Assembly: GCA_026391215.1 (NCBI GenBank)
Contig: JAPLDX010000048.1
Span: forward strand, 22,052-86,051
Direction: 5' to 3'
From: Bacteroidia bacterium
GTDB taxonomy: Bacteria > Bacteroidota > Bacteroidia > Bacteroidales > VadinHA17
Length of the DNA: 64,000 nucleotides
In this document: in pieces, positions 23,501 through 39,325 of the stretch
How positions within the stretch are numbered: position 1 is the first letter of the stretch
Layout of the letters: every line of letters begins with the position of its first letter
Program-made: the position numbers and the translations under genes
The notes under the pieces: generated by a model
Told to the model about the DNA's origin: nothing
Seen by the model: only the letters and a program-made list of their open reading frames with translations
The model's database searches: none

Positions 23501-26500
23501 ATAAATCTAACTGGCATCTGCCGTGGTTCTGCAGCATGGGGTGATTACAATAATGATGGCAGGCTTGACCTGTTAATGACTGGTGAAAAGCAAAATGGAG
23601 AAAGAGTAATAAAAATCTATCGTAATTACTCGGCGACAGTCAACATTACACCTGCATCACCGGCCGGATTATCGTTAACCAGCAACGAGACATCGATAAT
23701 TCTCAGATGGAACAGGGTTGCAGGTGATGTCACTCCCCCAAAAGGAATGAGCTACAATGTCAGGATTGGTACTTCTTCCGGAGGATACAATGCAGTATCT
23801 CCAATGTCACTTTCATCAGGATCACACATGGTATCCAAAACAGGAAATGCCTGGTCCGATACTCTGTTCATTCTGAAGAATCCTAAAAAAGCAACCTATT
23901 ATTGCAGTGTCCAAGCTATAGACAATGGATTACTCGCCGGCTCCTTTGGATCAGAACAATCTATTGTCTTCTCTGCCTCTGTCCAGGCTTCAAAAATCAT
24001 AGCTGACAGTATACAGGGTAAAAGCTTAAAGCTGCTGTGGGAACGCGGGAATGGATCTGCCTGTATCGTATTTGCTAAGAAAGGTTCGGACGGAACAGCG
24101 TTACCTGTAAACGGAACGTTGTATACAGCAGATCAGGCATATGGGAATGGTACGCAGATTGGCGCCAGCGGATGGTACTGTGTTTACAGCGGTACAGGGA
24201 ATGGTGTAAAGATTAACAACCTAGAACCGGCTACTAGTTATATTTTCCATGTAATAGAATTTGAAGCGGGTCCTGTTTATTATACCCAGACCGGGCAGGG
24301 CAATCCTTTTACATTGCAGACAAATATGTTCACTGAGATGACAGGTATATCACTGCCGGGTATCGCTTCCGGGACTGCACTCTGGGGAGATTATGATAAT
24401 GATAACGATCTTGATATCCTGCTGACCGGACTAATAATTAATAATGTAAGAATTTCAAAGATATACCGGAATGACGGAGGCAATAAATTCACTGAACAAA
24501 CCAGTATAAGTTTTACCCCATTAAACGGAAGTTCCGCAGCATGGGGCGATTATGATAACGATGGAGATCTTGACCTTTTATTGACAGGGTATAATGGTCT
24601 GTCACCTGTTTCAAAAATATATCGCAACAATGGTGATAATACATTTGCTGAGCAAAGCAGCATAAATCTGCCTGCAATCAGTGATGCGTCAGTATCCTGG
24701 GCAGATTATGACAATGACGGTCATCTCGATATCTTATTGTCAGGGAACACTGGTGAGTCAGGGATAACTAAAGTATTCAGGAACTATGGCGACAACACTT
24801 TTATTGAACAGACTTCCATAGTACTTCAGGGATTGTCAAGGGGCTCTACAGCATGGGGTGATTACGATAATGACGGAGATCCTGATATTTTACTGACCGG
24901 AGGGAACAGTTCAAGGATTTATTGTAATAATGGGAATAATACATTTACCGACCAGTCAACTATTTATCTGAGAGGACTCGACGGAGGCTCAGTTGCCTGG
25001 GGCGATTATGATAACGACGGTGATCTGGATATTTTGTACAGCAGCAACGGTGCTTCATTGGTTTACCGCAATAACGGAAACAACACCTTTGAGGAGCAAA
25101 CCAGCATAATCCTGCAGGGAGTTCATGAGACATCTGCAGCCTGGGGTGACTATGATAATGACGGATATACCGATATTTTACTGGCAGGTTATAATGACTC
25201 ATGGATACCTGTCACCAGAGTGTACAAGAACAATGGCAACAACACTTTTACTGCGCAGAATGGAATAATCCTGACAGGCGTCGGGGATCCCTCAGTAGCC
25301 TGGGGAGATTATGATAACGACGGGAAGCTCGATATTTTATTGACAGGGAATACGAAATCAATACTCGTTTCAAAGGTTTACAGAAATGATTGTTTAATAT
25401 CCAATACAGCTCCATCAGCTCCAGCTGGTTTGTCAGTTACCAGTAATGAAACATCGGTGATCCTTAAATGGAACAGAGTATCAGGCGATGCGACCTCCTC
25501 CAGGGGAATGAGCTATAATGTTCGTATCGGTACCTCCCCGGGAGGAAGCGATGTGGTTTCACCTATGTCGCTGACATCAGGATTAAGGCTTTTACCGGCT
25601 CTGGGTAATGCCCAGTCCGATACAGCTTTTTTCCTGAAGTATCCTAAGAAGATCACTTATTACTGCAGTGTCCAGGCAATTGATAATGGATTTTCTTCCG
25701 GGCCGTTTGCTTCCGAACAATCCATCACATATACGTATTCATTACAGGCTTCACAGGTAATAGCAAGTAATATCCGGGGATCAACATTGAACCTGAACTG
25801 GAACAGAGGTAATGGATCAGCCTGTCTGGTATTTGCTAAAAAATCAGAAGTTGGTTCGGCATCTCCCGTTGACAATACAACATATATTGCCAGTCAGCAA
25901 TTTGGAGCTGGTTCACAGATTGGCACAACAGGCTGGTACTGTATTTACAATGGAACCGGCAACAAAGTGACTGTCACAGGACTGGAAGCATTGACGAAAT
26001 ATACATTCCATGTGGCGGAATACGACGCAGGTCCGAAATATGATACCAGGTCAGCTCAATTCAACCCGGCAGTTGCAGAAACCGGACTATTTGATGAGCA
26101 GACAGGAATAACAATACCGGCGCTTTCGCAAAGCAGTACAGCCTGGGGTGATTATGACAACGATGGTGATTTTGACCTTTTGCTTACAGGTCTTTCATCT
26201 TCAGGGAATTTGTCTAAAATATTCCGTAACGAGGGGAGTAATGTATTTGCCGAACAGACCTCAATAACTCTTATGGGTGTTTCCGGAGGTTCCTCCGCAT
26301 GGGGCGATTATGATAATGACGGAGATATTGATATTCTGCTTACAGGCAGCGGATATTCAAAAATTTACAGGAATAACGGAAACAATTCTTTCTCGGAACA
26401 GACCGGTATTAATTTACTTAAGGTACAAAAAAGCTGCGCGGCCTGGGGAGATTATAACAATGATGGTTTCCCGGATATCCTGTTGACAGGCAATAGTTCA

Positions 26501-29500
26501 ACAGGTAATATATCGAAAGTTTACCGCAATAATGGTGATAATACATTTACCGATCAGACAGGCATTGTTCTGCAGGGAGTTTCTGAAGGTTCCTCTGCAT
26601 GGGGCGATTATGATAATGACGGCGACCTGGATATTTTACTGACCGGAACAACTAACGGATCAGTTTCAGGAGCAGCTTCAGAAATCTACAGGAACAATGG
26701 TGATAACACATTTACTGAACAATCCGGCATAACCCTCCTGGGAGTTTATCAGAGTGCTGCAGAATGGAACGATTATGATAGTGACGGCGATCTTGATATA
26801 ATGATAACCGGGTCCTCTTCAATAGGATATATTTCCAGGATTTACCGCAATAATGGTGACTATACTTTTACCCTGCAGACGACTCTTTCCTTTCCCGGAA
26901 TAATATCCGGGACCATAACATGGGGAGATTTTACAAATGACGGAAATCCGGATATCATACTCACAGGGACAATCAATGGTTCTGCCTCCGGAGCTGTATC
27001 AAGGTTCTACAGGAATAACGGTGACAATACCTTCAATGAGATGCCCGGAATCGTCCTCTCTGGAGTTTATCTGAGCTCAGCTGAGGCAGGCGATTACGAT
27101 ATGGACGGGAATCCGGACCTCCTTCTTACAGGCTCCGGTATTGACGGTAATCCTATAGTAAAATTATATCGTAACCTTATTTCAATACCAAACAATGAAC
27201 CGGCTGCACCAACAGGTCTGACAACCACAAGCAGCGAAGCATCAATTTTATTCCGGTGGAAAAGGGTTTCCGGAGATGCAACACCTTCCATGGGTATTGG
27301 TTACAATATCAGGATCGGTACTTCTCCCGGCGGAAGTGATGTGGTATCCCCGATGTCTCTCTCATCAGGATCACGCCTTGTACCTGATTATGGCAATTCC
27401 CGTTCCGATTCTGTTTTTGTTCTGAAGTCACCAAAGAAGATAACCTATTACTGGAGTGTTCAGGCTGTTGATAACGGATTCAATCCCGGACCATTTTCTG
27501 CCGAACAATCTGTAACGTATACAATATCCGTACAGGCTTCCAGGGTAATTGCAGCTTCTGTTGAGGGAACAAACATTGATCTTGAGTGGACCAGGGGAAA
27601 CGGCTCTGCATGTGTAGTCTTTGCGAAGAAAACAAACAGTGGTTCAGCATTGCCTGTTGACGGAGATACGTATAGTGCTGATGCAAATTTCGGTGCAGGA
27701 ACCGAGATCGGTACTACCGGATGGTATTGTGTTTATTATGGAACTGATAATTTTGTCAATGTAAGAAACCTTGAATCACTTACATATTATACATTCCATG
27801 TAATAGAATTTGATCCGGGACCGGTATATGATACCAGGACAGGCCTGGAAAATCCATTAATAACTAAAACCGGATTATTCGATGAACAAACAGGAATAGC
27901 CATTCAGGGAATAACACAGGGATCAGTTTCCTGGGGTGATTATGACAGCGATGAAAACCCGGATATTCTTATTACAGGAAGCGGGTATTCAAGGATTTAT
28001 CACAACAACAGTGACAATACCTTCGCCCAGGCAGTAACAATGACAGGTGTCTTCTACAGCTCCGCTGCCTGGAGCGATTATGACAATGATGGTGATATTG
28101 ATATCCTGGTTACAGGAAGTGCATCCTCAAAAATTTACCGCAATGACGGTGGGAATACTCTTACCGAACAGACAGCAATAATTCTTGCCGGAGTTTCATA
28201 TGGTTCTTCAGCCTGGGGCGATTATGACAATGATGGCGATCCTGATATATTACTGACAGGCCGGCTGAGCTCAGGAGAAGGAGTCACGAAGATTTACCTT
28301 AATAATGGCAATGACACTTTCAGCGAACAAACACGAATCAGCCTGCCAAATGTATACTACAGTTCTGTTGCCTGGGGCGATTATGATAATGACGGGTTTT
28401 TAGACATTCTTCTTTCAGGTACTTCAAATGGACTGCCGTCGGGAGCATTATCAAAAGTTTACAGGAACAATGGCGATAACAGTTTTACCGTGCAATCAGA
28501 AATAATCCTCCAGGGAGTATATCAGGGCTCAGCAGCCTGGATCGATTATGATTCTGACGGCGATCTTGATATTTTACTCTCAGGAAGCACTGGCATCTCG
28601 GCCTCATCAGCTGTTTCGAAAATTTACCGAAATAATGGTGAGAACAGTTTCACAGAGCAAACCGCAATAAGCCTCCATGGAGTCTATCAAAGTTCTGCAG
28701 CATGGGGCGATCTTGATAACAATGGATATCCGGATATTCTGCTGACAGGCCGGTCAGCCAGCGGTGAATACAGGGCTGATGCATACCTTAATGATGGTGA
28801 AAATAACTTTACGGAACAGGAGAGTATTAGACTGACAGGAGTAATTTACAGTTCAGCAGAATTGTGTGATTATAACAAAGACGGTAAGCTCGATTTGTTA
28901 CTGTCCGGACAGTCAGGCAACGGTGCCATTTCAAAAATTTATCGAAACACTTCAACCGGTTCTAACAGCGCGCCTGCCACACCGATCGGCTTAACAGCCA
29001 CAGAAACAGAAACATCACTGATACTTAAATGGAACAGGGTTACGGGTGATGCTACACCGGCCGGCAGCATTATCTACAATGTACGTGTTGGTACTTCACC
29101 GGGAATCGGTGATATTGTATCTTCCATGTCAACGGCTTCAGGATCATCACTGATCCCTGATATAGGGAATGCCAGATCAGATACCCTTTATATCCTCAGA
29201 TATCCTCAGAAAACAACTTATTACTGGAGTGTTCAGTCTGTCGACAACGGATTTATGACCAGCCCGTTTGCAGCAGAACAAACTTTCGTCTTTACCAGTT
29301 CTGTTCAGGCATCTCTTGTTTATGCTGATAACATCCAGGGATCAAGCGTAAGCCTGACCTGGCGAAGAGGTAACGGAACAGCTTGTATGGTATTTGCAAA
29401 AGAGGGTGGAACAGGAATCGCTGAACCTGCAGACGGTACTGATTATACTGCCGGCCAGGTATACGGCTCCGGTACACAAATTGGCACAAGCGGATGGTAC

Positions 29501-31093
29501 TGTGTCTATAAAGGTACAGGAAACAATACGGTGATTACCGGACTGACCCCGATGCAAACATATTCTTTCCAGGTAACTGAATATGAAGCTGGTCCTGCTT
29601 ATTATACTCAAAGCGGCCAAGGCAACCCTGTTGCAGTACGCACAGGATTATTCGCTGAACAGACAGGAATAACTCTGCCCGGTGTAACAAACAGTTCATC
29701 AGCCTGGGGTGATTATGATAACGATGGCGATCTTGATATTGTTATTACCGGAAACACAAGCTCCGGACGTATTTCGAAGATATTCCGGAATAATGGCAAT
29801 AATAGTTTTACAGAAAATACAGGGGTGAGCCTTCCGGGAATAGGTTATGGTTCTGTTGCCTGGGGAGACTATGATAATGATGGAGACATTGATCTTTTAC
29901 TTACAGGTACCTCCAATGGTTCTCCATCAGGAGCCTTATCCGGAATATTCAGGAATAACGGCAACAGTACATTTACCGAACAATCTGCAATTGCTTTGCC
30001 TGGAGCTTATTACAGCTCTGCTGCCTGGGGCGATTATGATAATGATGGCTGGCTTGATATCTTAATAACAGGAACAAACAATGGCTTATCATCAGGTGCA
30101 TTTTCAAAGATCTTCCGCAATAACGGGGACAACACTTTCACAGAACAAACAGGCATTGACCTGCAGGGAGTCTGTTTCAGCTCAGTTGTCTGGGGTGATT
30201 ATGATAATGATAATGACCTTGATATTCTGATGGCCGGCAGCCTGCTTTCAAAGATTTACCGTAATAACGGGAATAACTCCTTTACCGAACAAACGGGCAT
30301 AACTCTTCCGGGAATCAATAACGGATCAGTCGCCTGGGGTGATTATGACAATGACGGTGATCTTGATATCCTGATAACAGGATCTTCCTCATCAGGGTAT
30401 AATTCAAAGATATTCCGCAATAACGGAGATAATACTTTTACGGCTCAGAATATCATCAGCATAACCGGGATCTCCTATGGTTCAGGGAACTGGGGTGATT
30501 ATGACAATGATGGGCTTCTCGATATTCTGATAACCGGGCGGGCTGGAAATACTTCATCAGAGATAATCACTGAATTCTATCATAATAATGGCAACAATTC
30601 CTTTACAGAGCAGACCAATCTAAGCCTGGAAGGCGTTTATAACAGCTCAGTTGCCTGGGGAGACTATAATAATGACGGGAAGCTAGATATACTGCTTACA
30701 GGACAGAACTCGAGTTATGTTCCGGTGTCCCGGATTTACAGGAATCTTTCAGCAGAACCAAATACTCCTCCGGGAGTACCGACCGGATTGTCGTCTGCTG
30801 TAAGTGATACATCAATAATTCTGTCATGGACGAAGGCAAATGATGATAACACTCCGGCCGCCGGGATCAGCTACAATATCCGCATTGGCTCTTCATCAGG
30901 GGCAAATGATATAGTGCCGTCAATGTCGCTGAATAATGGAACGAAATTATTCCCGGGCATCGGGAATGCACAGTCAGGGACATCCTTCCTTCTTAATTAT
31001 CCTAAGAAAGCAACTTATTACTGGAGCGTTCAGGCTGTTGATCATGGATTTGCTTCCGGAGCTTTTTCAGAAGAAAAAACATTTGTCTTTTAA
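8534..31093 (+). CDS. Giant FG-GAP/FN3 repeat protein, N-terminal part (7519 aa; 13 propeller units; signal peptide but no T9SS CTD)
   Basis: ATG 8534 gives MNKNFLIKPALILLCIIINIDLFP-Q, a typical signal peptide. 13 x 7 WxD[YF]DxDG blades, each set followed by FN3-like domains. Ends at TAA 31091-31093 inside a repeat linker. Confidence 0.9.
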   Translation: MNKNFLIKPALILLCIIINIDLFPQTFVDTGITLTGVQRSSSSWCDYDRDGDMDILITGDNISKIYRNDGSNTFNEQTGIVLEGIWQGSVSWGDYDNNGYPDILMTGYSSSGTISKVYRNNGDNTFTEQTTIVLKGVGDSSTEWGDYDNDGDQDILLTGNGYSRIYSNNGDNTFTWQTSISLQGISESSVAWGDYDRDGDLDILLTGGDISKIYRNNGNNTFSEQTSISLIGISCSSVDWGDYDNDGYLDILLTGNDNSGTPLSKIYRNNGDNSFSEQTDIGLTGVNYGSAVWGDYNNDGYTDILLTGSNYGGPVSKVYKNNGNNTFTEQTDIILTAVYNSRVAWGDYNNDGKLDILLTGDTGSVTVSKIYQNAIATANTAPAAPAGLSATSDETSVTLQWSSVTGDATPAGGMSYNVRVGTSPGGNDVVSPMSLTAGSHLLPVNGNDGSNTSYVLKNPPKATLYWSVQAIDNGFLGGAFADEQSLTYSVSLQASHVFTDSIKTSSVILNWTRGNGSACVVFGKKGNSGSAAPEDGTTYTPDPAFGTGSQIGSTGWFCVYSGNGSSVNVVDLEPATYYVFQVIEFQAGPAYYFTTGQANPITFRTTTFVELTGVTLESVTNCSSAWCDYDRDGDLDILLTGNGISKIYRNDGSNTFNEQTGIVLEGVSNSSVAWGDFNNDGYPDILLTGDGPGYPVSKVYRNNGNNTFSEQTSIVLIGVSNSSVAWSDYDNDGDQDILLTGNGNSRIYSNNGDNTFTYQAGIILRNVNRAAVDWADYDRDGDLDILLIGWGWTNIYRNNGNNTFTDQTSISIQGVNDATAAWGDYDNDGYPDIVLAGWDNSQCISKIYHNNGGNSFTELTGTALTPVCNGSVDWGDFDNDGYLDILLAGWGPAGPVSIIYSNNGNSTFSEQTDINLKGVGSSSVSWGDYNNDGKLDILLTGDTGSGYASKIYQNATGTANIAPAAPPGLSATGVPTSVAFQWSGVTEDATPAGGMSYNLRIGTSPGGSDVISPMSLVAGSHLLPNYGNVGSSVYYTLKNPPKATLYWSVQAVDNGLMAGAFAAEQSIAFSISLQASRVFADSIMPSSLRLNWTRGNGSGRVVFAKKGNSGTATPENGMTYTANTSFGSGSQIGTSGWYCVYNGTGSGVEITGLEPLTNYIFQVIEYDAGNIYFTETGQSNPVVIQTNAFIEQTDILLQGISHSYLAWGDYDRDGDLDIVLTGDGMSKIYRNEGSNTFTEQAGIIPETISNSTVAWGDYDNDGYPDILLTGDGPSGPVSKVYHNNENNTFTVQTSIILQGISNGAAEWGDYDNDGDQDILLVGNGHTRIYSNNGDNTFTWQAGITIQGASESSAAWGDCDNDGDLDVLLTGWNSARIFRNNGDNTFIEITGLPLHGVSWGSASWGDYDNDGWLDILLAGNGSSKVYRNNHNNTFSEQTGITMVGTWNSSAAWGDFDNDGYADILLTGWGPDKQISKVYRNNGNNTFSEQTGITLTGINNGSASWGDYNNDGKLDILLSGDIQNGGVTKIYQNNYITSNAAPAAPAGLSTTSNETSVTLQWNKVIGDATPADGMSYNVRIGTTPGGSDVVSPLSLTSGSRLLPKQGNAQSNTFYILKNPPKTTFYWSIQAIDNGLMSGPFAAEQSFTYSVSLQASNVFADSIRLSSVQLKWTRGNGSACAVFAKKANTGTAVPVNSTVYTANTVFGSGQQIATSGWYCVYNGTGSGVKVTGLEILTDYIFLVIEYDAGPVYYAETGNSNPAVVQTNAFEEQTGIVLQNMGNTAGAWADYDKDGDPDILLTGDGMSRLYLNNGDNTFTEQAGIIPDNFSSSTVAWGDFNNDGYPDILITGDCQSGQVSRVYRNNGDNTFTWQTSIVLPGINNGSTEWGDYDSDGDQDILLAGNGFSRIYSNNGDNTFTWQSGISLPGISNGAATWGDYDNDSDPDVLLSGWGFSKIFRNNGDRTFTEQTGISLQATNDGASAAWGDYDNDGYLDILLTGLNNSSGQISKVYHNNGDNTFTEQTGIILTGINNGSSAWGDFDNDGFADILLSGYTATRQISKIYRNNGDGTFSEQTGIVLAGAGNCIAAWGDYNNDGKLDILLSGDSGYGGISKIYKNSYITSNTAPGTPSGLSETTGEASITLQWGDVTGDATTAEGMSYNVRIGNTPGGSEVVSPMSLASGSHLIPRRGNVWSGTSFILKNPAKTTFYWSVQAVDNGLLAGAFAGEQSFNYSVSLQASNVFADSIKPYSVRLNWTRGNGSACVVLAKKGNSGTATPENGIIYTANPVFGNGSQIGTSGWYCIYNGTGSSVKVTGLEALTDYVFQVIEYDAGPSYFTETGQANPAVVQSNAFEEQTGITLQGVNNSSSAWADYDRDGDLDILLTGDDVSKIYRNNGNNTFTEQTGIILQGVNNSSVAWGDYDNDGYPDILLSGCSPSGVISRVYRNNGNNTFTEQTSIALQGVCNGSVSWADYDNDGDPDILLSGSGITRIYSNNGDNTFTWQTGIVLQNTDGSSAAWSDYDRDGDPDLLLTGWNNSRIYRNNGNNFFTDQTGISLETISQGSVAWGDYDNDGNPDILLTGYTNSWVPISKIYHNNGNNSFSELAGTSLTGVGNGSVAWGDFDNDGYPDILLTGYDPAGKQISKVYHNNGNSTFSEQPGIVLKGVGHGSAAWGDYTNDGKLDFMLTGYSGYGGISGIYQNFITTSNSAPAAPTGLSATGTEAAVTFQWSGVSGDATPTAGMSYNVRIGTTPGGSEIVSPMSLTSGSRLLPDQGNAWYNTQFILKKPEMATLYWSVQAIDKGLLSGPFSAEQTFTYSFPLQASNVFADSINPSFLKLNWTRGNGSGCLVFVKKGDSGSAIPVNSTVYLANTVFGSGTQIGSTGWYCVYNGTGASVRIMGLEPLTNYVYHVIEFDTGPSYFTQTGQANPVIIQSNAFAEQTDIILQGVNNNSIAWCDYDRDGDLDIILTGDGMTKIYRNEGVNTFIEQTTIALQGVSSGSVAWGDYDNDGYPDILLTGDSPSGPVSRVYRNNGNNTFTDQASIVLIGVSNSSVAWGDYNNDGNPDILLSGHDKDNNGISRIYRNNGDNTFTWQEGISLYGVSESSVAWGDYDNDGDLDILLTGWSSSRIYCNNGDNTFTELSGITLYGVSWGSTAWGDYDNDGYLDILMTGNGISKVYRNSRNNTFSEQTGIILPAIWQGNAVWGDYDNDGYADILLTGYASAGHVSKVYRNNGNNTFTEQTGIVLKNIGNGNAVWGDYNNDGKLDILLSGDTGNGTVTKIYQNSLISSNAAPAAPGGLSATSNETSIIFKWNRVTGDATPAKGMSYNVRIGTTPGGSDMVAPMSLASGKRLVPEMGNVQSDTLFILKNPKKGTYYGSVQAIDNGFYPGAFAVEQSITYSYSVQASYIHADSIKALDMIIRWNRGNGSGCVVFAKKGDSGSAVPANGTTYTADPVFGNGSQIGATGWYCIYNGTGINVKVSGLEPLASYIFHVIEFETGLSYYTQTGQFNPAVLKTNLFAELTRTILPGIGGHCSSAWGDYDRDGDLDILLTGYGISKIYRNDGSNTFNEQTGIILEGVSASSASWGDYDNDGYLDILLTGWSNNGYSMSKIYRNNGDNTFTWQSSISLTGVVNGAVAWGDYDNDGDLDVLLTGSRYSKIYRNNGDNTFTEQTAISLTGVDSGTASWGDYDNDGDLDILMTGQAVASPVAKIFRNNGDNTFSEQTGINLEGINEGSAKWGDYDNDSYLDFFVAGQGRAKLFHNNGNNTFTEQTGISIPGINQSSATWGDYDNDGFIDILLSGNENTGLTVSKIFRNNGNKTFSEQTDIILPGVSRGSVDWGDYDNDGKLDILLTGDSRNGSISKIYKNYITKSNAAPAAPSGLSATTNETSVILRWNRVTGDETPAKGMSYNVRIGTSPGGSDVVSTMSLTSGSHLLSGMGNAQCDTMFILKYPDKVTYYWSVQAIDNGLKPGPFATEQTIIYSVRLQASQIIASDVQASQLSLTWRRGNGSSCMVFAKKGDTGSPLPSDGITYTSDPVFGNGSQIGTSGWYCVYNGTSTNVSITGLEPLTNYIFQVIEYETGPSYYTQSGQANPIVVMTNVFAEQTSIILPGVSNSTVAWGDYDNDGDLDILLTGVKINNERISKIHRNDGSNTFAEQTGIILQGVMNGSGDWGDYDNDGDLDILLTGEGISKIYRNNGNNTFSEQTGINLQGVSESSVAWADYDNDGYLDILLSGNNTSGIAVTKIYRNNGNNSFTEQTGITLPAIGYSALAWGDYDNDGYKDILLGNSKIYRNNGNNTFTEQTNINLYGVGEPSVAWGDYDNDGYLDILLSGTSNPESVSKIYRNNGNNTFSEQTGINLKGINQGSGCWGDFDNDGNLDILLTGGGFTKIYHNEGDNTFTEYPDLGQSGLQNSSAAWGDYNKDGKLDILLSGQSANGYITKIYRNLSGTSNIAPEAPAELSSTINETSVILKWNRVTGDATPSKGMSYNVRVGTSPGGSNVVSPMSLASGSRLLQSLGNTHADSLFILKNPKKTTYYWSVQAIDNGFLPGLFAAEQSLTYSLSVQASNVFADSIKPSSLRLNWTRGNGSGCVVFAKNDNSGMAEPVNGTAYSANPVFGNGTQIGTSGWYCVYSGTGISVNVTGITTTDNYIFHVIEFESGPSYYTQTGQANPFILLPSILAEQTGINLPAIGNRSSASWGDYDRDGDLDILLAGDGISKIYQNDGNNVFSEQTGITLPGIWQGSAAWGDYDNDGDLDILLTGYHSSVRISKVYRNNGNSSFTEQTGIILTGVGNSAVAWADFNSDGLLDISLTGDCPYGSVTQIYRNNGNNSFTEQPGLNILGVNNGSIEWGDYDHDGDPDILLTGNSTEGTISRIYSNNGDNTFTYQSGINLTGVGEGTAKWGDYDNDSNLDIILSGNGITKIYRNNGNSTFSEQTGISLQAVHQTSIAWGDYDNDGFPDIFLTGNNNSWISVAKIYHNNGDNTFSEQTDINLTGICRGSAAWGDYNNDGRLDLLMTGEKQNGERVIKIYRNYSATVNITPASPAGLSLTSNETSIILRWNRVAGDVTPPKGMSYNVRIGTSSGGYNAVSPMSLSSGSHMVSKTGNAWSDTLFILKNPKKATYYCSVQAIDNGLLAGSFGSEQSIVFSASVQASKIIADSIQGKSLKLLWERGNGSACIVFAKKGSDGTALPVNGTLYTADQAYGNGTQIGASGWYCVYSGTGNGVKINNLEPATSYIFHVIEFEAGPVYYTQTGQGNPFTLQTNMFTEMTGISLPGIASGTALWGDYDNDNDLDILLTGLIINNVRISKIYRNDGGNKFTEQTSISFTPLNGSSAAWGDYDNDGDLDLLLTGYNGLSPVSKIYRNNGDNTFAEQSSINLPAISDASVSWADYDNDGHLDILLSGNTGESGITKVFRNYGDNTFIEQTSIVLQGLSRGSTAWGDYDNDGDPDILLTGGNSSRIYCNNGNNTFTDQSTIYLRGLDGGSVAWGDYDNDGDLDILYSSNGASLVYRNNGNNTFEEQTSIILQGVHETSAAWGDYDNDGYTDILLAGYNDSWIPVTRVYKNNGNNTFTAQNGIILTGVGDPSVAWGDYDNDGKLDILLTGNTKSILVSKVYRNDCLISNTAPSAPAGLSVTSNETSVILKWNRVSGDATSSRGMSYNVRIGTSPGGSDVVSPMSLTSGLRLLPALGNAQSDTAFFLKYPKKITYYCSVQAIDNGFSSGPFASEQSITYTYSLQASQVIASNIRGSTLNLNWNRGNGSACLVFAKKSEVGSASPVDNTTYIASQQFGAGSQIGTTGWYCIYNGTGNKVTVTGLEALTKYTFHVAEYDAGPKYDTRSAQFNPAVAETGLFDEQTGITIPALSQSSTAWGDYDNDGDFDLLLTGLSSSGNLSKIFRNEGSNVFAEQTSITLMGVSGGSSAWGDYDNDGDIDILLTGSGYSKIYRNNGNNSFSEQTGINLLKVQKSCAAWGDYNNDGFPDILLTGNSSTGNISKVYRNNGDNTFTDQTGIVLQGVSEGSSAWGDYDNDGDLDILLTGTTNGSVSGAASEIYRNNGDNTFTEQSGITLLGVYQSAAEWNDYDSDGDLDIMITGSSSIGYISRIYRNNGDYTFTLQTTLSFPGIISGTITWGDFTNDGNPDIILTGTINGSASGAVSRFYRNNGDNTFNEMPGIVLSGVYLSSAEAGDYDMDGNPDLLLTGSGIDGNPIVKLYRNLISIPNNEPAAPTGLTTTSSEASILFRWKRVSGDATPSMGIGYNIRIGTSPGGSDVVSPMSLSSGSRLVPDYGNSRSDSVFVLKSPKKITYYWSVQAVDNGFNPGPFSAEQSVTYTISVQASRVIAASVEGTNIDLEWTRGNGSACVVFAKKTNSGSALPVDGDTYSADANFGAGTEIGTTGWYCVYYGTDNFVNVRNLESLTYYTFHVIEFDPGPVYDTRTGLENPLITKTGLFDEQTGIAIQGITQGSVSWGDYDSDENPDILITGSGYSRIYHNNSDNTFAQAVTMTGVFYSSAAWSDYDNDGDIDILVTGSASSKIYRNDGGNTLTEQTAIILAGVSYGSSAWGDYDNDGDPDILLTGRLSSGEGVTKIYLNNGNDTFSEQTRISLPNVYYSSVAWGDYDNDGFLDILLSGTSNGLPSGALSKVYRNNGDNSFTVQSEIILQGVYQGSAAWIDYDSDGDLDILLSGSTGISASSAVSKIYRNNGENSFTEQTAISLHGVYQSSAAWGDLDNNGYPDILLTGRSASGEYRADAYLNDGENNFTEQESIRLTGVIYSSAELCDYNKDGKLDLLLSGQSGNGAISKIYRNTSTGSNSAPATPIGLTATETETSLILKWNRVTGDATPAGSIIYNVRVGTSPGIGDIVSSMSTASGSSLIPDIGNARSDTLYILRYPQKTTYYWSVQSVDNGFMTSPFAAEQTFVFTSSVQASLVYADNIQGSSVSLTWRRGNGTACMVFAKEGGTGIAEPADGTDYTAGQVYGSGTQIGTSGWYCVYKGTGNNTVITGLTPMQTYSFQVTEYEAGPAYYTQSGQGNPVAVRTGLFAEQTGITLPGVTNSSSAWGDYDNDGDLDIVITGNTSSGRISKIFRNNGNNSFTENTGVSLPGIGYGSVAWGDYDNDGDIDLLLTGTSNGSPSGALSGIFRNNGNSTFTEQSAIALPGAYYSSAAWGDYDNDGWLDILITGTNNGLSSGAFSKIFRNNGDNTFTEQTGIDLQGVCFSSVVWGDYDNDNDLDILMAGSLLSKIYRNNGNNSFTEQTGITLPGINNGSVAWGDYDNDGDLDILITGSSSSGYNSKIFRNNGDNTFTAQNIISITGISYGSGNWGDYDNDGLLDILITGRAGNTSSEIITEFYHNNGNNSFTEQTNLSLEGVYNSSVAWGDYNNDGKLDILLTGQNSSYVPVSRIYRNLSAEPNTPPGVPTGLSSAVSDTSIILSWTKANDDNTPAAGISYNIRIGSSSGANDIVPSMSLNNGTKLFPGIGNAQSGTSFLLNYPKKATYYWSVQAVDHGFASGAFSEEKTFVF

Positions 31094-34000
31094 GCTTCAG
31101 TACAGGCACAGATGATCTTTGCAGATAACATCCGGCCTTCAACCCTCGATTTGCATTGGCATCGCGGCAACGGATCAGCTTGTGCTGTATTTGCCCGTAA
31201 AGGAAACAACGGGACTGCATCACCAGTCAATGGAACTTCCTATACGGCTGACAGACAGTTCGGTGCAGGTACGCAGATAGGGACAACCGGATGGTACTGT
31301 GTTTATAACGGGACAGGTAATAATGTAAATATAACCGGACTGGAACCGCTGAAAACCTATATCTTCCATGTTATAGAGTATGAAAACGGGCCAGCTTACT
31401 ACACCAAAAAAGGACAGAGTAATCCATTTGTTACCCAAACCGACCTGTTTGTAGAGCAAACCTCTGTAACCCTGCAGGCAGTAAGCGGCGGATCAGTAGT
31501 ATGGGGAGATTATGACAGAGATGGCGACCTGGACATACTGCTGACCGGAGGAGGCGTTTCGAAAATATACCGGAATAATAATGACAATACTTTCTCGGAA
31601 CAAACAACCATTGTTCTGCCCGGCGTGACAAACAGTTCTTCATCATGGAGCGACTTTGATAACGACGGTGATCTCGACATTTTACTTACAGGCGGGAATA
31701 TTGCAAAAATCTTCCGTAATAATGGTGATAATATCTTTACCGAACAGTCTTCCATAACTCTGCCGGGAGTCACTTATGGTTCAGCAGCATGGGGCGATTA
31801 CGATAATGACGGCTATCAGGATATTCTTCTTACAGGCCGGCTCAGCAGTATGGAGTATACATCCAGAATCTTCAGGAACAATGGAAACGCTACATTTACA
31901 GAACAAACTGACATTGCCATAACAGGAGTCTATAACAGTTCTGTTTCATGGGGTGATTATAATAATGACAGTTATCCGGATATATTAGTGACAGGTAACA
32001 GCAGCTCTGGTCCGGTTTCGAAGATATACCGTAATAATAAAGACAACACTTTCATTGAGCAGACAGGTATCAAGCTGGAAGAAGTAGGATACAGTTCGGC
32101 AGTGTGGGGAGATTATGATAATGATGATGACCTGGATATTTTGCTGACGGGCAACAGTATCTCAAAAGTGTACAGGAATAACGGTAATAATACTTTCTCT
32201 GAACAGCCTGGTATAATACTTCAGGGAGTTGCTTACAGCTCGGCAGCCTGGGCTGATTTTGATAACGACAGTAATTCAGATATAGTTATTACCGGTACAA
32301 CAAACGGAACTGCATCAGGGGCAGTCACGAAATTCTACCGCAATAATGGCGATAATACTTTCGCGGAACAATCAGGTATAAGCCTTGCAGGAATTTTTAA
32401 CAGTTCAATAGCATGCGGTGATTACAACAATGATGGCAAGCTTGATATTCTTCTTACAGGAAGTAATGCGGATGGTTCTGCAGTATCTAAACTATATACA
32501 AATTACTGTGCAACAAGCAGGATAAAGCCGGGTATTCCGGTACTGGTTTCAAATGCAGTATCCGATTCATCAATAATGTTGAAATGGAACAGGGTGCTGC
32601 GGAATGGCAAGCCTGTCAGGGGAATGAGTTACAATGTAAGGATTGGATATTCACCGGAGGCCAATGATGTTATGTCATCAATGGCTTTAACGACTACAGG
32701 AACCAGGCTTATCCCAAAGATGGGTAATGTTCAATCCGATACCATTTTTGAACTTCGGAATCCCAGGCGAAACAATTTTTACTGGAGCGTCCAGGCAATT
32801 GACAATGGATTTAATGCGGGAGAATTTACCGAAGATATGGGCTTTAATTTCTCATCCTGGATCCAGGCTTCCGACCTTTTTGTAAATGATGTCCAGGGAG
32901 CAAGGTTGAATCTCTTCTGGAAAAGAGGTAACGGATCAGAATGCCTTGTATTTGTAAAAAAAGGGAACAGTGGAACTGCATCACCGGCTAACGGTACTCC
33001 TTATGAAGCCAGGGCAAAATTTGGTGCAGGAACCCAGATTGGCACAAGCGGATGGTTCTGTATTTACACAGGAACAGGCAACAACGTCACTGTGACAAAT
33101 TTAGAGGGATTAACCGACTATATCTTCGCTGTTGTGGAAACCGATGGAGGATTTAGTTATTATAATAATTTAAGAGGACATGGTAATCCGCTGGTTGTAA
33201 AAACGGGTGCATTTACAGAGGAGAGTTCAATAAGTCTGATTGGAGTAAAGAATGGTTCAGTCATCCCAGGTGATTATGATAATGACGGCGATCCTGACAT
33301 CCTGCTTACAGGAAACGGAAGCTCCAAAATATACAGGAACACCGGCAATAATAATTTTGCTGCGCAGAATGCGATCATTCTTACAGGTGTATCGGAAGGT
33401 TCTTCAGCATGGGGTGATTATGATAACGATAATTATCTTGATATCCTGATAACAGGACTTACCAGCGAAAATGCTCCTGTCACAAAGATCTATCATAATA
33501 ACGGGAACAACACGTTTACTGAACAAGCAGGTTTAACCATACCGGGAGTTTATAACAGCTCGGTAGCATGGGGGGATTATGATAACGATGGATTTCTGGA
33601 TATTCTTCTGACCGGCAGATCAGCTGCCAACGATATTATTTCTTCAATTTACCGCAATAACGGAGACTATACTTTTACAGGGCAAACAGGTATTATCCTT
33701 CAGGGAGTATATTCAGGCTCCTGCATATGGGGTGATTATAATAATGATGCTAATCTCGATATTCTCCTGACAGGATTTAACAGCAATAATATTCCTGTTA
33801 CAGGTCTCTACCGAAACAATGGAGATAACTCATTTACAGAACAGACAGCCGTTAATATCAGCGGTGTTGCCAGGAGCTCTGTTGACTGGGGCGATTATGA
33901 TAATGACGGAGATCTTGATATCCTGATAACCGGACAATCGGGCACAAGCTTTATTGAATATGTCTCAAAAGTATACCGCAACAACGGAGACAATACCTTT

Positions 34001-37000
34001 ACAGAGCAGACCGGCATTGAGCTTAAAGGAGTTCACAAGGGTTGCGCAGCATGGGGCGACTACGATAACGACGGCTTATCAGATATTCTTCTGACAGGAA
34101 ACTCAGGCACAATTGAGAGCGATTATGTTTCAAAGGTCTACCGGAACAATGGCAATAATACTTTTACTGCACAGACCAATATAAACCTCCTGAGTGTTTA
34201 TAACAGCTCAGCTGAATGGGGAGACTACGATAAGGACGGCAGGCTGGATATTTTCCTTGCAGGTTATAATCCTGATTACGGATCGGTAACCAGGGTTTAC
34301 AGGAACATGTCTTCGGCATCCAACAACGCACCATTAGCGCCGGCAGGTCTCATAACGACAAGCAATGAAACATCCCTGATCCTGAGATGGAACAGGGTGC
34401 CGGGCGATGCCACACCTGCAAAAGGAATGAGCTACAACGTGCGTATTGGTACCTCGCCGGGAATAAGCAATGTGGTTTCGACAATGGCATTGACCTCAGG
34501 GTCAAGGCTTATAACTGGTTTGGGCAATGCCCAGTCCGATACAATGTTTGTTCTGAAATATCCTCAGAGAGCAACTTATTACTGGAGCGTTCAGGCTATC
34601 GATAATGGCTTTGCTCCAGGTACCTTTGCTGCAGAACAGTCATATGTCTTCTCAACGCCGGTGCAGGCTTCCCGCCTTTTTGCCGACAGCATTCTTGTTT
34701 CAGGGATAACACTTCACTGGAACAGGGGAAATGGATCTGCCTGTGTTGTTTTTGCAAGAAAAGGTTCCACCGGTACAGCTGCTCCGGTTAATAATACAGA
34801 TTATACGGATGACAATAACTTCAGTGCCGGAACCGAGATTGACGCCTCAGGTTGGTACTGCATTTACAGCGGAACAGGAAATAAGGTTAAGGTAACCGGA
34901 CTGGAGCTTCTGACAGACTATACATTCCAGGTAATAGAATACGATCCGGGTCCGGTATACTTCACACAGACAGGACAGTCCAATCCTGTTATTGTGCAGA
35001 CAAGCATATTCTCAGAGCAGACAACTATAAGTCTTGCCGGAGTAACATATGGTTCGGTTGCCTGGGGAGATTACGACAACAGCGGTTATCAGGATATTCT
35101 GTTAACGGGTACGACAAATGGCAGTTATACGGGTGCTGTAACAAAAATATACCGGAACAATGGGAACAATACTTTCTCAGACCAGGTTGTCATAAGCCTT
35201 CCTGGTGTGATGAACAGTGCGGGAGCCTGGGGAGATTATAATAATGATGGTTATCTTGATATACTGCTGAGCGGTCTCGATATAAACAATGCACCTGTTT
35301 CAAAGATATTCAGGAACAATGGCAATAACAGCTTTTCAGAACAGACTGAGATTAGCATTACCGGCGTAAGGGAAAGCTCTGCAGACTGGGCAGACTTAAA
35401 TAACGACGGGAAGCTTGATATTGTAATTGCAGGAACTTCAGCATCAGGAGAAATTTCGAAGATCTACATTAACCTGGGCAATAATAAGTTCAGGGAGCAG
35501 CAGGGTATCAATCTTCCGGGAGTGACAAATGGTTCTGTTGTATGTGCTGATTACAATAATGACGGCTTTACGGATATTTTGATGACCGGATCGGGATTGT
35601 CCAGGATTTACCGAAACAGTGGTAACCCATTTTTAATGGAATTTATTGAACAGCAGGGCATTGATCTGACAGCTGTTTCAAAGAGCTCTGCAGCCTGGGG
35701 CGATTATGATGGCGACGGGGATCCCGATATCCTGCTTACAGGCTATGATATTACCGGTAATGTTCCGGTATCACGGGTTTACAATAATAACAACGACGCC
35801 TTCACCATCGCGGATATAAACCTGACAGGAATTGCCGGATCATCAGTCGCCGACAACTCAGTTATCGGGGCCAGTGAAACAATATGGGGCGATTACGACA
35901 ATGATGGCGATCCTGATATCCTTCTGACAGGAGAGACATCCTCCGGACGTATCTGCAGAATTTACACCAATAACGGTAACGGCACCTTCAAGGATCAATC
36001 AAATTTCAACCTGCCCGGAATAAGATACAGCTCAGCAGCATGGGGAGATTATGATAACGACGGGGACCTGGATATTATCCTTACAGGGGAACAGGGTGCT
36101 TCACGAATAACAAAGATTTTCAGGAACGAAATAGCGAAGTATAATGTCAGGCCCCAGGCACCTGAAAGATTAACCTCAGTGATTGGTGTACACAATACAA
36201 TACTCTCCTGGGATCCTGTGAAAAATGATGAAACGGCTCCGGAAGGACTGACATATAATATCAGGATAGGAACAACTTCTGCCGGCAGACAGGTAATGGC
36301 TCCGATGGCATCGACCGCAGGAATACGAAGAATAACTGCAATGGGGAATGCCCAGCTCGATACCTTTGGAATAATCCAGAACCTGCGGCCAGGAACCTAT
36401 TACTGGAGTGTTCAGGCGGTCGACAATGTATTTGCCGGAGGAACATTTGCAGCTGAGGCAAGCTTTACCATCGACAGCATTCAGGCGAGCAATCTGGAAG
36501 GCAAGCTGGTTGCAAACAGTAGCAACGCTCTTTCAATAAAATGGACAAACGGCAACGGGGAACGAAGAGTTATGTTTTGCAAACAGGGATCAACAGGGAC
36601 CGCAGTGCCTGCACATAATATAACCTATGGCGCAGATCCCGTATTCGGATATGGCGATCAGATAGACAATACCGGCTGGTATTGTATCTTTAATGGCAGA
36701 GGTGACAGTACGGTAGTAAGCGGTCTGTCACAGGGAGTGGCATATTCTTTCCAGGTCATAGAATATATTGGATCTACAGGAAGTGAATTATACTACAGGC
36801 TATCAGGCGAAAATAATCCAGGCATTTTCTCATCCGGATTATTCTCAGAACAATCAGATATCGCTCTAGATAAGGTATATAACAGCTCAGTTGTCTGGGG
36901 TGACTATGACAACGATGGCGACCTTGATATTTTGCTGACCGGTTATAATACACTTGAATCAGGATCAGCTGCTATTTCAAAGATCTACCGCAATAACGGC

Positions 37001-38330
37001 AACAATTCGTTTACAGAGCAGACAGGCATTAATCTCTTTGGCGTTCAGAATGGCTCAGTTGCGTTTGGCGATTATGATAATGACAATGACCTGGACATCC
37101 TGCTTACAGGTATGACCAGCGGCTCATTCCCTGTTTCAAAAATATACAGGAACAATGGCAACAATACCTTCACCGAGCAGGCAGGTATCAGCCTGATCGG
37201 AACAAGCTACTCTTCCGCCAGCTGGAGTGATTTCAACAAGGATGGCTATCTTGACATTCTCCTTACCGGTCAGGGCGCCGGATCAAACCTTATATCAAAG
37301 ATCTACAGGAACAATGGAAATAGTACTTTCACTGAACAGGTTGACATAAGCCTGGAACGCGTTTCAAAAGGTTCATCTGCCTGGGGAGATTATGATAATG
37401 ACGGTGATATAGATTTTCTGCTTACAGGCAATAACAGCTATGGAACACAGCAATCTGTTTCGGTTATCTATGCGAATAACGGCGACAGCACATTTACCGT
37501 GCAGTCAGGAATCAGCCTGCCGGGTGTAATGAACAGTTCTGTTGTATGGGGCGATTACGACAATGATGACGATCTTGATTTACTGCTAACAGGATATAAT
37601 AATGATGGCACAATGCTTTATATATCAAGAATATACAGGAACGATGGTAATAATGTATTTACTTATCAGTCAGGAATAAAGCTCGAGGGTGTGGCTAACA
37701 GTTCGACAGCATGGGGTGATTTCGACAATGACGGTGATCTGGATATTTTATTGTCCGGCCGTCTTGTATCAGGAGGATTCACCTCAAAGATATACAGAAA
37801 CAACAGCAATAACACATTTACGGAAGTGCCCGGCACTTCATTTACAGGTGTCGGCTACTGCTCTGTGGCATGGGGTGATTATGATAACGACGGGGACCTT
37901 GATATATTAATGACAGGACAGAGTACCGGTTCAACAGTAGTATCAAAGATCTACAGGAACAATGCAATAATGAAGGCAGGGGATTACGGAGCCAACAGAA
38001 AGCCAGCTCCACCGGCAAACCTTGCTTCTGTACGTCTGCCTGAGGGTATGAAGCTTTCATGGTCACCGGTAAAAACTGATGAAACACCTTATAAGTCATT
38101 AACCTATAATATATATGTCAAATCGCGTGAAGAAGGATATCTGACCTTCTCAGCGCAATCCGACAGTGTCACGGGATTCCGCCGGATAGTATCGATGGGG
38201 AATGCCCAGACAGACACGACTTATCTTATAAAGAATCTCACACCGGGGAAATATGACTGGAAGGTCCAGGCTGTTGACCAGGGTTACAGGGGAGGATACT
38301 GGGCTGACGGAGGGATGCTTAATGCAAAGA
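8600..38330 (+). repeat. 17 tandem coding repeats of about 1.75-1.85 kb (propeller + FN3-like-1 + FN3-like-2; unit 17 lacks the second FN3)
   Basis: The [ST]YN[VIL]R-type motif recurs near 9780, 11520, 13250, 15000, 16750, 18495, 20245, 21985, 23750, 25510, 27300, 29075, 30870, 32625, 34430, 36250 and 38100. Confidence 0.95.
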
Positions 38331-39325
38331 ATGTCCAGGCTTTCTTCAACGCAGGAACAGTATGCCAGGGATCTCCAACGAATTTCACTAACCAGTCGAC
38401 CGCCTATAAAGAAACAATTCAAAGTTATGCATGGGATTTTGGAGACGGTACAACTTCCGTTGAAAAAGAACCAAATCATACTTTCAGCACTTCAGGGATA
38501 CATAATGTAAAACTGATTGTAACTTCAGTGACTGATATTGATACCCTGATAAAGCCCGTTATGGTAAATCCGACTCCGGCACCTGATTTTTCAACGGAAG
38601 GTATATGTGAGGATGCTGAAATTACCATTGTAAACCTGACTGTTACACAAGGTATCAATATCACTGTTTGGGGATGGGAATTCGGAGACGGGCTTACTGA
38701 TACAGTAAGAAATCCGGGATCGCATGTTTATATAAATTCCGGTGAATACCCGGTATCTCTCACTTCCATTACTGATCACGGATGCAGCAGATCCACTGTT
38801 AAAGCGATTAACGTTGCTGATGCTCTTTCGAAACCGCAGATGTTTTCAAAGGGTCCGGTTGTATGGTACCTTGCCTGCAGCAACGACAGTGCAAACTATT
38901 ACCATTGGTATTGCAACAGGGAACTTATCCAGGGTGCAAGTAGTTTTCTTTACATCGCTAACCGGAAAGTCGGAAGATATTATGTAAGCATTTCTGATAA
39001 TGGTCAGTGCTTTACTGCAAGTGATACAGTGGGAATACCGACTGGTTATACCGGAATTGAGGAAATAGATCCGTTTGCCGGACTCACTCTTTACCCCAAT
39101 CCCACTTCAGGATTAGTTACGATTGATTTTGAGAACCAGTTGTTTGGAGACCTGAATATTAAAATACTGACAATTGGGGGTAAGGAGATATACAGCAGCA
39201 AGTTCGGGAAAGCGACAGAGCATTTCTCGGGCGAAATTGATCTCAGCGATAAGGCGGAAGGGATCTATTTTATTACATTCATCCTGGAGGATTATTCTGC
39301 GGTAAGGAAGATAGTCTTAGAATAA
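31112..39325 (+). CDS. Giant FG-GAP/FN3 repeat protein, C-terminal part (2737 aa from ATG 31112; 4 propeller units, 2 PKD, Ig-like domain, T9SS type-A CTD; no signal peptide)
   Basis: Same frame as 8534-31093. Begins mid FN3-like domain. Ends LYPNPTSG...RKIVLE. Confidence 0.85.
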   Translation: MIFADNIRPSTLDLHWHRGNGSACAVFARKGNNGTASPVNGTSYTADRQFGAGTQIGTTGWYCVYNGTGNNVNITGLEPLKTYIFHVIEYENGPAYYTKKGQSNPFVTQTDLFVEQTSVTLQAVSGGSVVWGDYDRDGDLDILLTGGGVSKIYRNNNDNTFSEQTTIVLPGVTNSSSSWSDFDNDGDLDILLTGGNIAKIFRNNGDNIFTEQSSITLPGVTYGSAAWGDYDNDGYQDILLTGRLSSMEYTSRIFRNNGNATFTEQTDIAITGVYNSSVSWGDYNNDSYPDILVTGNSSSGPVSKIYRNNKDNTFIEQTGIKLEEVGYSSAVWGDYDNDDDLDILLTGNSISKVYRNNGNNTFSEQPGIILQGVAYSSAAWADFDNDSNSDIVITGTTNGTASGAVTKFYRNNGDNTFAEQSGISLAGIFNSSIACGDYNNDGKLDILLTGSNADGSAVSKLYTNYCATSRIKPGIPVLVSNAVSDSSIMLKWNRVLRNGKPVRGMSYNVRIGYSPEANDVMSSMALTTTGTRLIPKMGNVQSDTIFELRNPRRNNFYWSVQAIDNGFNAGEFTEDMGFNFSSWIQASDLFVNDVQGARLNLFWKRGNGSECLVFVKKGNSGTASPANGTPYEARAKFGAGTQIGTSGWFCIYTGTGNNVTVTNLEGLTDYIFAVVETDGGFSYYNNLRGHGNPLVVKTGAFTEESSISLIGVKNGSVIPGDYDNDGDPDILLTGNGSSKIYRNTGNNNFAAQNAIILTGVSEGSSAWGDYDNDNYLDILITGLTSENAPVTKIYHNNGNNTFTEQAGLTIPGVYNSSVAWGDYDNDGFLDILLTGRSAANDIISSIYRNNGDYTFTGQTGIILQGVYSGSCIWGDYNNDANLDILLTGFNSNNIPVTGLYRNNGDNSFTEQTAVNISGVARSSVDWGDYDNDGDLDILITGQSGTSFIEYVSKVYRNNGDNTFTEQTGIELKGVHKGCAAWGDYDNDGLSDILLTGNSGTIESDYVSKVYRNNGNNTFTAQTNINLLSVYNSSAEWGDYDKDGRLDIFLAGYNPDYGSVTRVYRNMSSASNNAPLAPAGLITTSNETSLILRWNRVPGDATPAKGMSYNVRIGTSPGISNVVSTMALTSGSRLITGLGNAQSDTMFVLKYPQRATYYWSVQAIDNGFAPGTFAAEQSYVFSTPVQASRLFADSILVSGITLHWNRGNGSACVVFARKGSTGTAAPVNNTDYTDDNNFSAGTEIDASGWYCIYSGTGNKVKVTGLELLTDYTFQVIEYDPGPVYFTQTGQSNPVIVQTSIFSEQTTISLAGVTYGSVAWGDYDNSGYQDILLTGTTNGSYTGAVTKIYRNNGNNTFSDQVVISLPGVMNSAGAWGDYNNDGYLDILLSGLDINNAPVSKIFRNNGNNSFSEQTEISITGVRESSADWADLNNDGKLDIVIAGTSASGEISKIYINLGNNKFREQQGINLPGVTNGSVVCADYNNDGFTDILMTGSGLSRIYRNSGNPFLMEFIEQQGIDLTAVSKSSAAWGDYDGDGDPDILLTGYDITGNVPVSRVYNNNNDAFTIADINLTGIAGSSVADNSVIGASETIWGDYDNDGDPDILLTGETSSGRICRIYTNNGNGTFKDQSNFNLPGIRYSSAAWGDYDNDGDLDIILTGEQGASRITKIFRNEIAKYNVRPQAPERLTSVIGVHNTILSWDPVKNDETAPEGLTYNIRIGTTSAGRQVMAPMASTAGIRRITAMGNAQLDTFGIIQNLRPGTYYWSVQAVDNVFAGGTFAAEASFTIDSIQASNLEGKLVANSSNALSIKWTNGNGERRVMFCKQGSTGTAVPAHNITYGADPVFGYGDQIDNTGWYCIFNGRGDSTVVSGLSQGVAYSFQVIEYIGSTGSELYYRLSGENNPGIFSSGLFSEQSDIALDKVYNSSVVWGDYDNDGDLDILLTGYNTLESGSAAISKIYRNNGNNSFTEQTGINLFGVQNGSVAFGDYDNDNDLDILLTGMTSGSFPVSKIYRNNGNNTFTEQAGISLIGTSYSSASWSDFNKDGYLDILLTGQGAGSNLISKIYRNNGNSTFTEQVDISLERVSKGSSAWGDYDNDGDIDFLLTGNNSYGTQQSVSVIYANNGDSTFTVQSGISLPGVMNSSVVWGDYDNDDDLDLLLTGYNNDGTMLYISRIYRNDGNNVFTYQSGIKLEGVANSSTAWGDFDNDGDLDILLSGRLVSGGFTSKIYRNNSNNTFTEVPGTSFTGVGYCSVAWGDYDNDGDLDILMTGQSTGSTVVSKIYRNNAIMKAGDYGANRKPAPPANLASVRLPEGMKLSWSPVKTDETPYKSLTYNIYVKSREEGYLTFSAQSDSVTGFRRIVSMGNAQTDTTYLIKNLTPGKYDWKVQAVDQGYRGGYWADGGMLNAKNVQAFFNAGTVCQGSPTNFTNQSTAYKETIQSYAWDFGDGTTSVEKEPNHTFSTSGIHNVKLIVTSVTDIDTLIKPVMVNPTPAPDFSTEGICEDAEITIVNLTVTQGINITVWGWEFGDGLTDTVRNPGSHVYINSGEYPVSLTSITDHGCSRSTVKAINVADALSKPQMFSKGPVVWYLACSNDSANYYHWYCNRELIQGASSFLYIANRKVGRYYVSISDNGQCFTASDTVGIPTGYTGIEEIDPFAGLTLYPNPTSGLVTIDFENQLFGDLNIKILTIGGKEIYSSKFGKATEHFSGEIDLSDKAEGIYFITFILEDYSAVRKIVLE

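Follow-up and report, generated by a model that had tools for sequence, protein, structure and literature searches.

The 64,000-nucleotide window analysed here (positions 22052-86051 of contig C31 in G000, a 3.39-Mb, 135-contig metagenome-assembled genome (MAG) of an uncultured Bacteroidales bacterium) carries a giant reading frame at 8534-39325 which, judged from its sequence, is one gene for a type IX secretion system (T9SS) cargo, split by a single TAA codon. We put at about 0.5 the probability that this TAA is real, a loss-of-function allele of very recent origin present in most of the sampled population. An error in the consensus sequence is a serious alternative, at somewhat under even odds, and a functional role of any kind for the stop is quite improbable. 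Readthrough, a change of the genetic code, phase variation, and a two-gene arrangement are not supported.

Codons 31085-31108 of the window read GTC TTT TAA GCT TCA GTA CAG GCA (F*ASVQA), with the TAA at 31091-31093 on the + strand; window position 31092 corresponds to position 53143 of contig C31. On translation, the frame 8477-39325 (10,283 codons) contains this TAA as its sole internal stop, in addition to the terminal stop, and the intact form of the interrupted gene 8534-39325 (~30.8 kb) would encode 10,263 residues. The upstream open reading frame (ORF) gives 7,519 aa from the ATG at 8534, and the downstream ORF gives 2,737 aa from the ATG at 31112, 19 nt past the stop, ending in a C-terminal Por_Secre_tail domain. 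Exactly one lesion is present in the 30.8-kb gene, rather than the several independent lesions of a decaying pseudogene. The parts of the gene are arranged as follows.

8534..31090, + strand: upstream part, 7,519 codons, with the signal peptide, 13 FG-GAP/VCBS propellers and fibronectin-like spacers, and without a sorting domain.
8534..8608, + strand: Sec signal peptide at the N-terminus, MNKNFLIKPALILLCIIINIDLFPQ, read from the translation.
31091..31093, + strand: in-frame TAA, in the linker between a fibronectin type III (fn3)-like domain, which ends at ~31090, and a PAP-N/fn3-like domain.
31094..39325, + strand: downstream continuation, 2,743 codons plus the stop, with 4 propellers, PKD domains and the sorting domain, and without a signal peptide.
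39089..39316, + strand: T9SS type-A sorting domain Por_Secre_tail, residues 2660-2735 of the downstream ORF.

Modules of ~580 residues make up the protein, each comprising an FG-GAP/VCBS propeller of seven blades, then an fn3-like domain, a short linker with the consensus F/Y-S-x-S-[LV]-Q-A-S, and a second fn3-like domain of the PAP-N type; the whole protein has 16 such spacers and about 17 propellers. Pfam matches in the upstream part are to FG-GAP_3, FG-GAP, fn3, and Pur_ac_phosph_N. Twelve complete spacers precede the stop, which lies in the linker of spacer 13. Within the last 700 residues of the upstream product the fn3-like match ends at the stop, the next domain begins nine residues into the downstream ORF, and the W.RGNG motif of spacer 13 (residue 7542) falls past the stop (residue 7520). 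The Gln that follows the hydrophobic core of the signal peptide is also found at the same place in orthologs (LFSQTF, LYSQTF, LFSQQF), and inspection of the downstream-ORF N-terminus, MIFADNIRPSTLDLHWHRGNG, revealed no hydrophobic core.

The initial annotation of this DNA had described a single in-frame TAA in the F*ASVQA context, separating the signal peptide from the secretion domain, products of 7519 aa and 2737 aa with the latter devoid of a signal peptide, and an open downstream stretch of 8.2 kb with an intact C-terminal sorting domain (CTD). Direct reading and frame translation bear out the stop and its context, the figures are all correct, and both ends of the protein are placed either side of the TAA. 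The downstream frame is open, and its Por_Secre_tail (Pfam PF18962 / TIGR04183) scores 46.4 bits against a cut-off of 27, as a CTD of T9SS cargo. In the recorded sequence the Sec signal peptide and the CTD are not on one polypeptide, since the TAA at 31091 divides them; they are on one polypeptide in the ancestral gene and in the ortholog of genome G093 described below. The secretion machinery itself is present, with SprA (TIGR04189), an intact T9SS translocon, encoded by an open frame of 2,426 aa in contig C111 and scoring 1,900 bits.

The repeats of the gene provide an internal comparison for the interrupted codon. In 14 other linkers, the aligned codon encodes Ser in 11 (TCT in four, TCC in three, TCA in four) and Thr in three (ACG, ACA, ACC). 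The sister motifs cited in the initial annotation, FSASVQA (codons near 23981) and FTSSVQA (near 29303), were both found, and its proposal of a single C>A change, TCA>TAA, is backed by these paralogous linkers as well as by four orthologs that read through the position. This change would be the simplest route from a linker Ser codon to the stop. A chance gene boundary cannot be the origin of the TAA, as it is the sole internal stop in a 30.8-kb frame and all paralogous and orthologous copies have Ser or Thr at the aligned residue.

Orthologs were sought at the protein level in 201 same-genus genomes, 54 of which gave matches; in none of the 54 was a stop found at the aligned position, in line with the absence of a stop in the orthologs, a comparison that the initial annotation had proposed. 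The orthologous module was found in two of the 201 genomes, G093 and G117. In G093 (Bacteroidales MAG PPR_0149, JBFYPG010000187.1), the gene lies at 17746-45063 of contig C187 and reads GAFSEEKSFSY-T(ACA)-ASVQARMVFADNIRP at the stop position, within a 9,105-codon open frame. Counted from Met, the uninterrupted protein has 9,095 aa; it carries the signal peptide MRVPSLKRLVLVTAFSATVFSLFSQ, and its sorting domain is homologous to that of the window gene. In G117, an "uncultured Rikenellaceae" MAG, the codon is TCT (Ser), and two metagenome proteins, P0002 (71% identity) and P0003 (59%), have Ser there at the protein level. These four orthologs, reading through with Ser or Thr, show that the stop is lineage-specific, confined to this genome, and that the gene was ancestrally one unit. 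The window protein tiles colinearly with that of G093 from residue ~2,400 to the end, across the stop, with identities of 58-81% in the downstream tiles and 53-72% in the upstream colinear tiles; identity downstream is comparable with that upstream, which indicates no decay past the stop.

Window residues ~600-2,400 (within window 8534-15700) map repeatedly onto G093 residues ~320-1,530, which points to two extra N-terminal propeller modules gained by recent intragenic duplication (~17 propellers against 15). P0002, the nearest relative in the protein collection, is a 7,641-aa fragment without signal peptide or sorting domain, from a Joint Genome Institute (JGI) metagenome contig of 28,483 bp that is 5.5 kb longer than the gene; this gene may also be interrupted, or it may be cut by the contig end. 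In protein collections, the 7,519-aa upstream product is on record (P0001), and the 2,737-aa product was found neither by identity look-up nor as a 100% match in the homology search.

That record, together with the ATG 19 nt after the stop, could be taken to indicate a genuine two-gene arrangement, in which two cooperating proteins are made and the stop is a true boundary, P0001 being a protein listed by gene callers. However, the boundary would then interrupt a repeat module that runs on unbroken in 15 sister modules and four orthologs, the upstream product would lack a sorting domain and the downstream product a signal peptide, and no relative among the 201 same-genus genomes shares the split. 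The 400 nt upstream of the stop contain no promoter-like site on the + strand; a single + strand promoter-like match occurs in 30600-31600, ~420 nt past the stop and inside the ORF, and no + strand terminator-like site was found near the stop. Two separate genes are therefore barely credible.

The intactness of both halves also bears on the age of the change. Among all single-base changes in the giant gene, 4.3-4.5% create a stop, and 3.5 new stops are expected in the downstream 8.2 kb per 1% of neutral divergence. The neutral time since the change is then below 0.85% divergence when substitutions only are counted, and the limit falls to 0.15-0.26% divergence if indels, at 0.1-0.2 times the rate of substitutions, are counted too. 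The lack of a second lesion in either half implies that the change is very young, or that it is not in the cells.

If the TAA is a real allele, a single C>A has turned the linker Ser codon TCA into TAA in this genome, and translation would end after residue 7,519. We infer that the cells truly carry A at this base and that the two products would have the following fates. Sec would export the 7,519-aa product to the periplasm, where T9SS could not recognise it without a sorting domain. For the last 2,743 codons, translation would at best depend on ribosomes reinitiating at the ATG 19 nt past the stop, and the resulting 2,737-aa product would stay in the cytoplasm for want of a signal peptide. 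The net outcome would be the loss of the surface protein. Several observations favour such an allele. TCA encodes Ser in four sister linkers and is one step from TAA. The assembly has 46 contig-end pairs that overlap by exactly 141 nt, an N50 of 50.8 kb, and no Ns; the exact end overlaps indicate a short-read assembly from a k=141 de Bruijn graph (MEGAHIT-type), and in such a build with this N50 an isolated read error rarely wins the consensus. In addition, the 30.8-kb gene is a large mutational target, with 4.5% of changes making stops; a dispensable gene of this length is the likeliest place for a real nonsense allele.

The giant gene is not the only one affected in this MAG. Same-frame stop junctions were surveyed in the rest of the MAG, with a paralog test on 293 junctions and a Pfam scan of the 160 best-coding ones; among the junction peptides, GldM and PorP/SprF domains were also found, as further parts of the T9SS machinery. 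In four further genes a lone in-frame stop interrupts the frame at a conserved residue; as a count for the MAG this is a lower bound, at least four further core genes.

C112:9678-9680, - strand: atpD, PYSK-TGA-GKIGLFGGAGVGKT, GGA>TGA, at the Gly before the P-loop of F1-beta.
C134:48200-48202, - strand: pckA, LVGDD-TAG-HGWDD, GAG>TAG, at the Glu of GDDEHGW in phosphoenolpyruvate carboxykinase (PEPCK).
C135:2518-2520, + strand: mutS, SLILLD-TAG-IGRGTSTYDG, GAG>TAG, at the Walker-B Glu.
C105:42323-42325, + strand: metH, EEK-TAA-GEAL, from Tyr.

Three of these four stops replace invariant motif residues, and the metH position is Tyr in seven relatives (TAT in six, TAC in one). Each stop is the sole lesion in its gene, and no second copies of atpD, pckA, mutS, or metH were found in the genome. 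With the giant gene included, G:C>T:A accounts for at least four of the five changes, a weakly significant excess (P = 0.03-0.05) given that this class makes up 31-35% of stop-creating targets.

These genes weigh against a real allele in the giant gene. Stops in four single-copy core genes are hard to believe in a free-living cell, and they suggest a raised consensus error rate of roughly 1e-4, on the assumption that the five stops are about a third of all such stops. At this rate, ~0.14 error-made stops would be expected in the giant gene, a value similar to a reasonable prior for a real stop. The G:C>T:A class is also the signature of oxidative library damage. A real loss of mutS should leave frameshifts, and a scan of 52 homopolymer-associated frame changes yielded no clear frameshift and one candidate, on contig C121. 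Finally, a search for a second copy of the junction with an exact pattern carrying NNN at the codon gave 0 matches in metagenome and genome contigs. Homology searches likewise returned neither a relative more than 71% identical nor a fragment that crosses the junction, and a motif-based search for the locus (GWYCVYN, WGDY[ND]ND) returned only distant relatives at <=60% identity, the generic motifs having missed the P0002 contig.

On the reading that the stop is a consensus artefact, the cells keep an intact TCA (Ser), and the A at 31092 is an error that reached the MEGAHIT-type consensus. Possible routes include low unique coverage, PCR-duplicated damaged templates (8-oxoguanine (8-oxoG), giving C>A/G>T), or polishing, with the same process acting in the four core genes. 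The lone stops at conserved residues of single-copy genes, the predominance of G:C>T:A, the absence of a clear homopolymer frameshift in a nominally mutS-null genome, and the 0.14 stops predicted for the giant gene are all consistent with it. Nevertheless, a k=141 build with this N50 normally means adequate depth and majority-rule bubbles, the giant ORFs of the window, 44 kb in all, contain no frameshift, and the stops lie away from contig ends except for that of mutS (2.5 kb). The five sites show no common sequence motif of the kind expected from methylation-type systematic error.

The mutational spectrum could also be biological. No match to MutY (TIGR01084) above the cut-off was obtained in this genome or in any of the 18 same-genus genomes tested, the only match being Nth-like at 90 bits, and among 12 genomes from the order's other families eight have MutY. 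This pattern looks like a genus-wide loss of MutY, the glycosylase that repairs 8-oxoG:A. In a genus without MutY a natural bias towards G:C>T:A is plausible, which favours a real allele over an artefact. All five stops could be real, in a MutY-less, now MutS-null mutator clone that has come through a recent bottleneck and whose spectrum is rich in G:C>T:A; genes that are dispensable under some conditions (F-type ATPase beta, PEPCK, MetH, the giant surface protein) would be undergoing inactivation, and the TAA of the giant gene would be one snapshot of this process. We consider such a clone unlikely. Hypermutation caused by mismatch-repair deficiency is not supported as the cause of the stops, as none of the five changes is a transition and no clear frameshift was seen in the 52 junctions; the lack of a clear homopolymer frameshift indicates no footprint of a long-standing loss of mismatch repair.

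The candidate on contig C121 (31379-31447, + strand) is a possible +/-1 frameshift at a G5 run in an FtsX-like permease gene, in which the FtsX domain starts at profile position 25 directly after the frame change. Another junction, on the - strand of contig C64 (strand coordinate 16023), lies in a PnuC-like (NMN_transporter) gene with a G-rich low-complexity insertion of ~45 aa that contains a TAG, GAGLRAQGSGHKAQGAGQEEERGRKG*GEKMRKENERGGEGEGEK.

A further possibility is that the stop is tolerated or used, with low-level UAA readthrough or reinitiation throttling the output of the 10,263-residue protein. The stop does lie in an inter-domain linker where any inserted residue could be tolerable, both halves are perfectly intact, and an in-frame ATG follows 19 nt past the stop. 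However, the stop is missing from all four orthologs, and the RNA fold of 31085-31184 (100 nt) is no more stable than expected (z = +0.46; 132 of 200 shuffles fold as well). The 39 tRNAs of the genome have standard anticodons, none with UUA, CUA, or UCA, and a reinitiation product would have no signal peptide. UAA followed by G is an efficient terminator in Escherichia coli, and we know of no bacterial recoding system for UAA. Such a use of the stop is very unlikely.

A recoding structure was rejected, and programmed recoding is not supported, given the lack of downstream structure, suppressor tRNA, and conservation. The initial annotation had offered four possible causes with no preference among them (a very recent loss-of-function allele, a polymorphic on/off allele, a base-call error, and low-level readthrough), the last of which found no support for the same reasons. 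An alternative genetic code was also rejected: TAA, TAG, and TGA all end ordinary genes, there is no suppressor tRNA, and the five in-frame stops replace four different amino acids (Ser, Gly, Glu, Glu, Tyr). A reversible on/off switch is not supported either. Neither a phase-variation tract nor an invertible element was found at the site, where the context ACATTTGTCTTTTAAGCTTCAG has only a T4 run, and a base substitution is not a high-frequency reversible switch.

Comparison with known systems places the interrupted gene among familiar cases. The G093 ortholog shares its module design, signal peptide type, sorting domain, and downstream genes, with 53-81% identity over the colinear part from window residue ~2,400; it differs in being an uninterrupted protein of 9,095 aa, with Thr (ACA) at the stop position and 15 propellers, compared with ~17 in the window. 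SprB of Flavobacterium johnsoniae is likewise a very large, repetitive surface cargo of Sec plus T9SS, and the export of giant T9SS surface adhesins such as SprB depends on the C-terminal sorting domain (PMC10202324). In contrast to SprB, which has a type-B CTD, another repeat type, and a tie to gliding, the window protein has a type-A CTD (PF18962) and FG-GAP propellers. An adhesin role for the window protein is putative. The gene also resembles nonsense alleles and single-lesion pseudogenes of large surface-protein genes, with a lone premature stop in an intact long ORF that is absent from relatives. There is no difference in kind from these, and the MAG has the same lesion type in core genes too; longer sequences are likelier to contain a stop codon and to gather deleterious mutations (PMC11573180). 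Programmed recoding (selenocysteine at UGA with a selenocysteine insertion sequence (SECIS) element, pyrrolysine at UAG, or readthrough) has in common with the window gene an in-frame stop between two open conserved halves, whereas the window codon is UAA, is not conserved, and has neither a downstream structure nor a dedicated tRNA.

Two genes follow the interrupted gene on the same strand.

39498..46523, + strand: paralogous T9SS cargo, 2,341 aa (FG-GAP, PKD, Ig_7, Por_Secre_tail).
46534..48507, + strand: outer-membrane beta-barrel OMP_b-brl_2, 657 aa, a conserved downstream partner.

The same order is found in G093 (C187:45467-54608), with a 2,401-aa ORF and then a 648-aa ORF after the giant gene. 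The beta-barrel gene starts 10 nt after the cargo gene in the window, whereas in G093 the two overlap by 11 nt. The premature stop could exert polarity on the 2,341-aa cargo gene, provided that it is co-transcribed with the giant gene.

The giant T9SS cargo gene is interrupted by an ordinary change of one base, or by a sequence error; no new mechanism is involved. In a surface-protein gene of this size, a lone nonsense change or a base error is to be expected, and in the closest relatives the gene is normally one T9SS cargo of 9-10 thousand residues. For annotation, 8534-39325 is best treated as one interrupted gene and not as two proteins, and the 7,519-aa entry in protein collections as a truncated product. 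The most useful by-product is the flagging of a MAG with five in-frame stops, of which four hit core genes. With atpD, pckA, mutS, and metH carrying such stops, gene loss should not be concluded from this MAG until its base accuracy, or the clone's biology, has been checked. If all five stops are real, the organism would be a natural MutY-less, MutS-null mutator caught early in gene loss.

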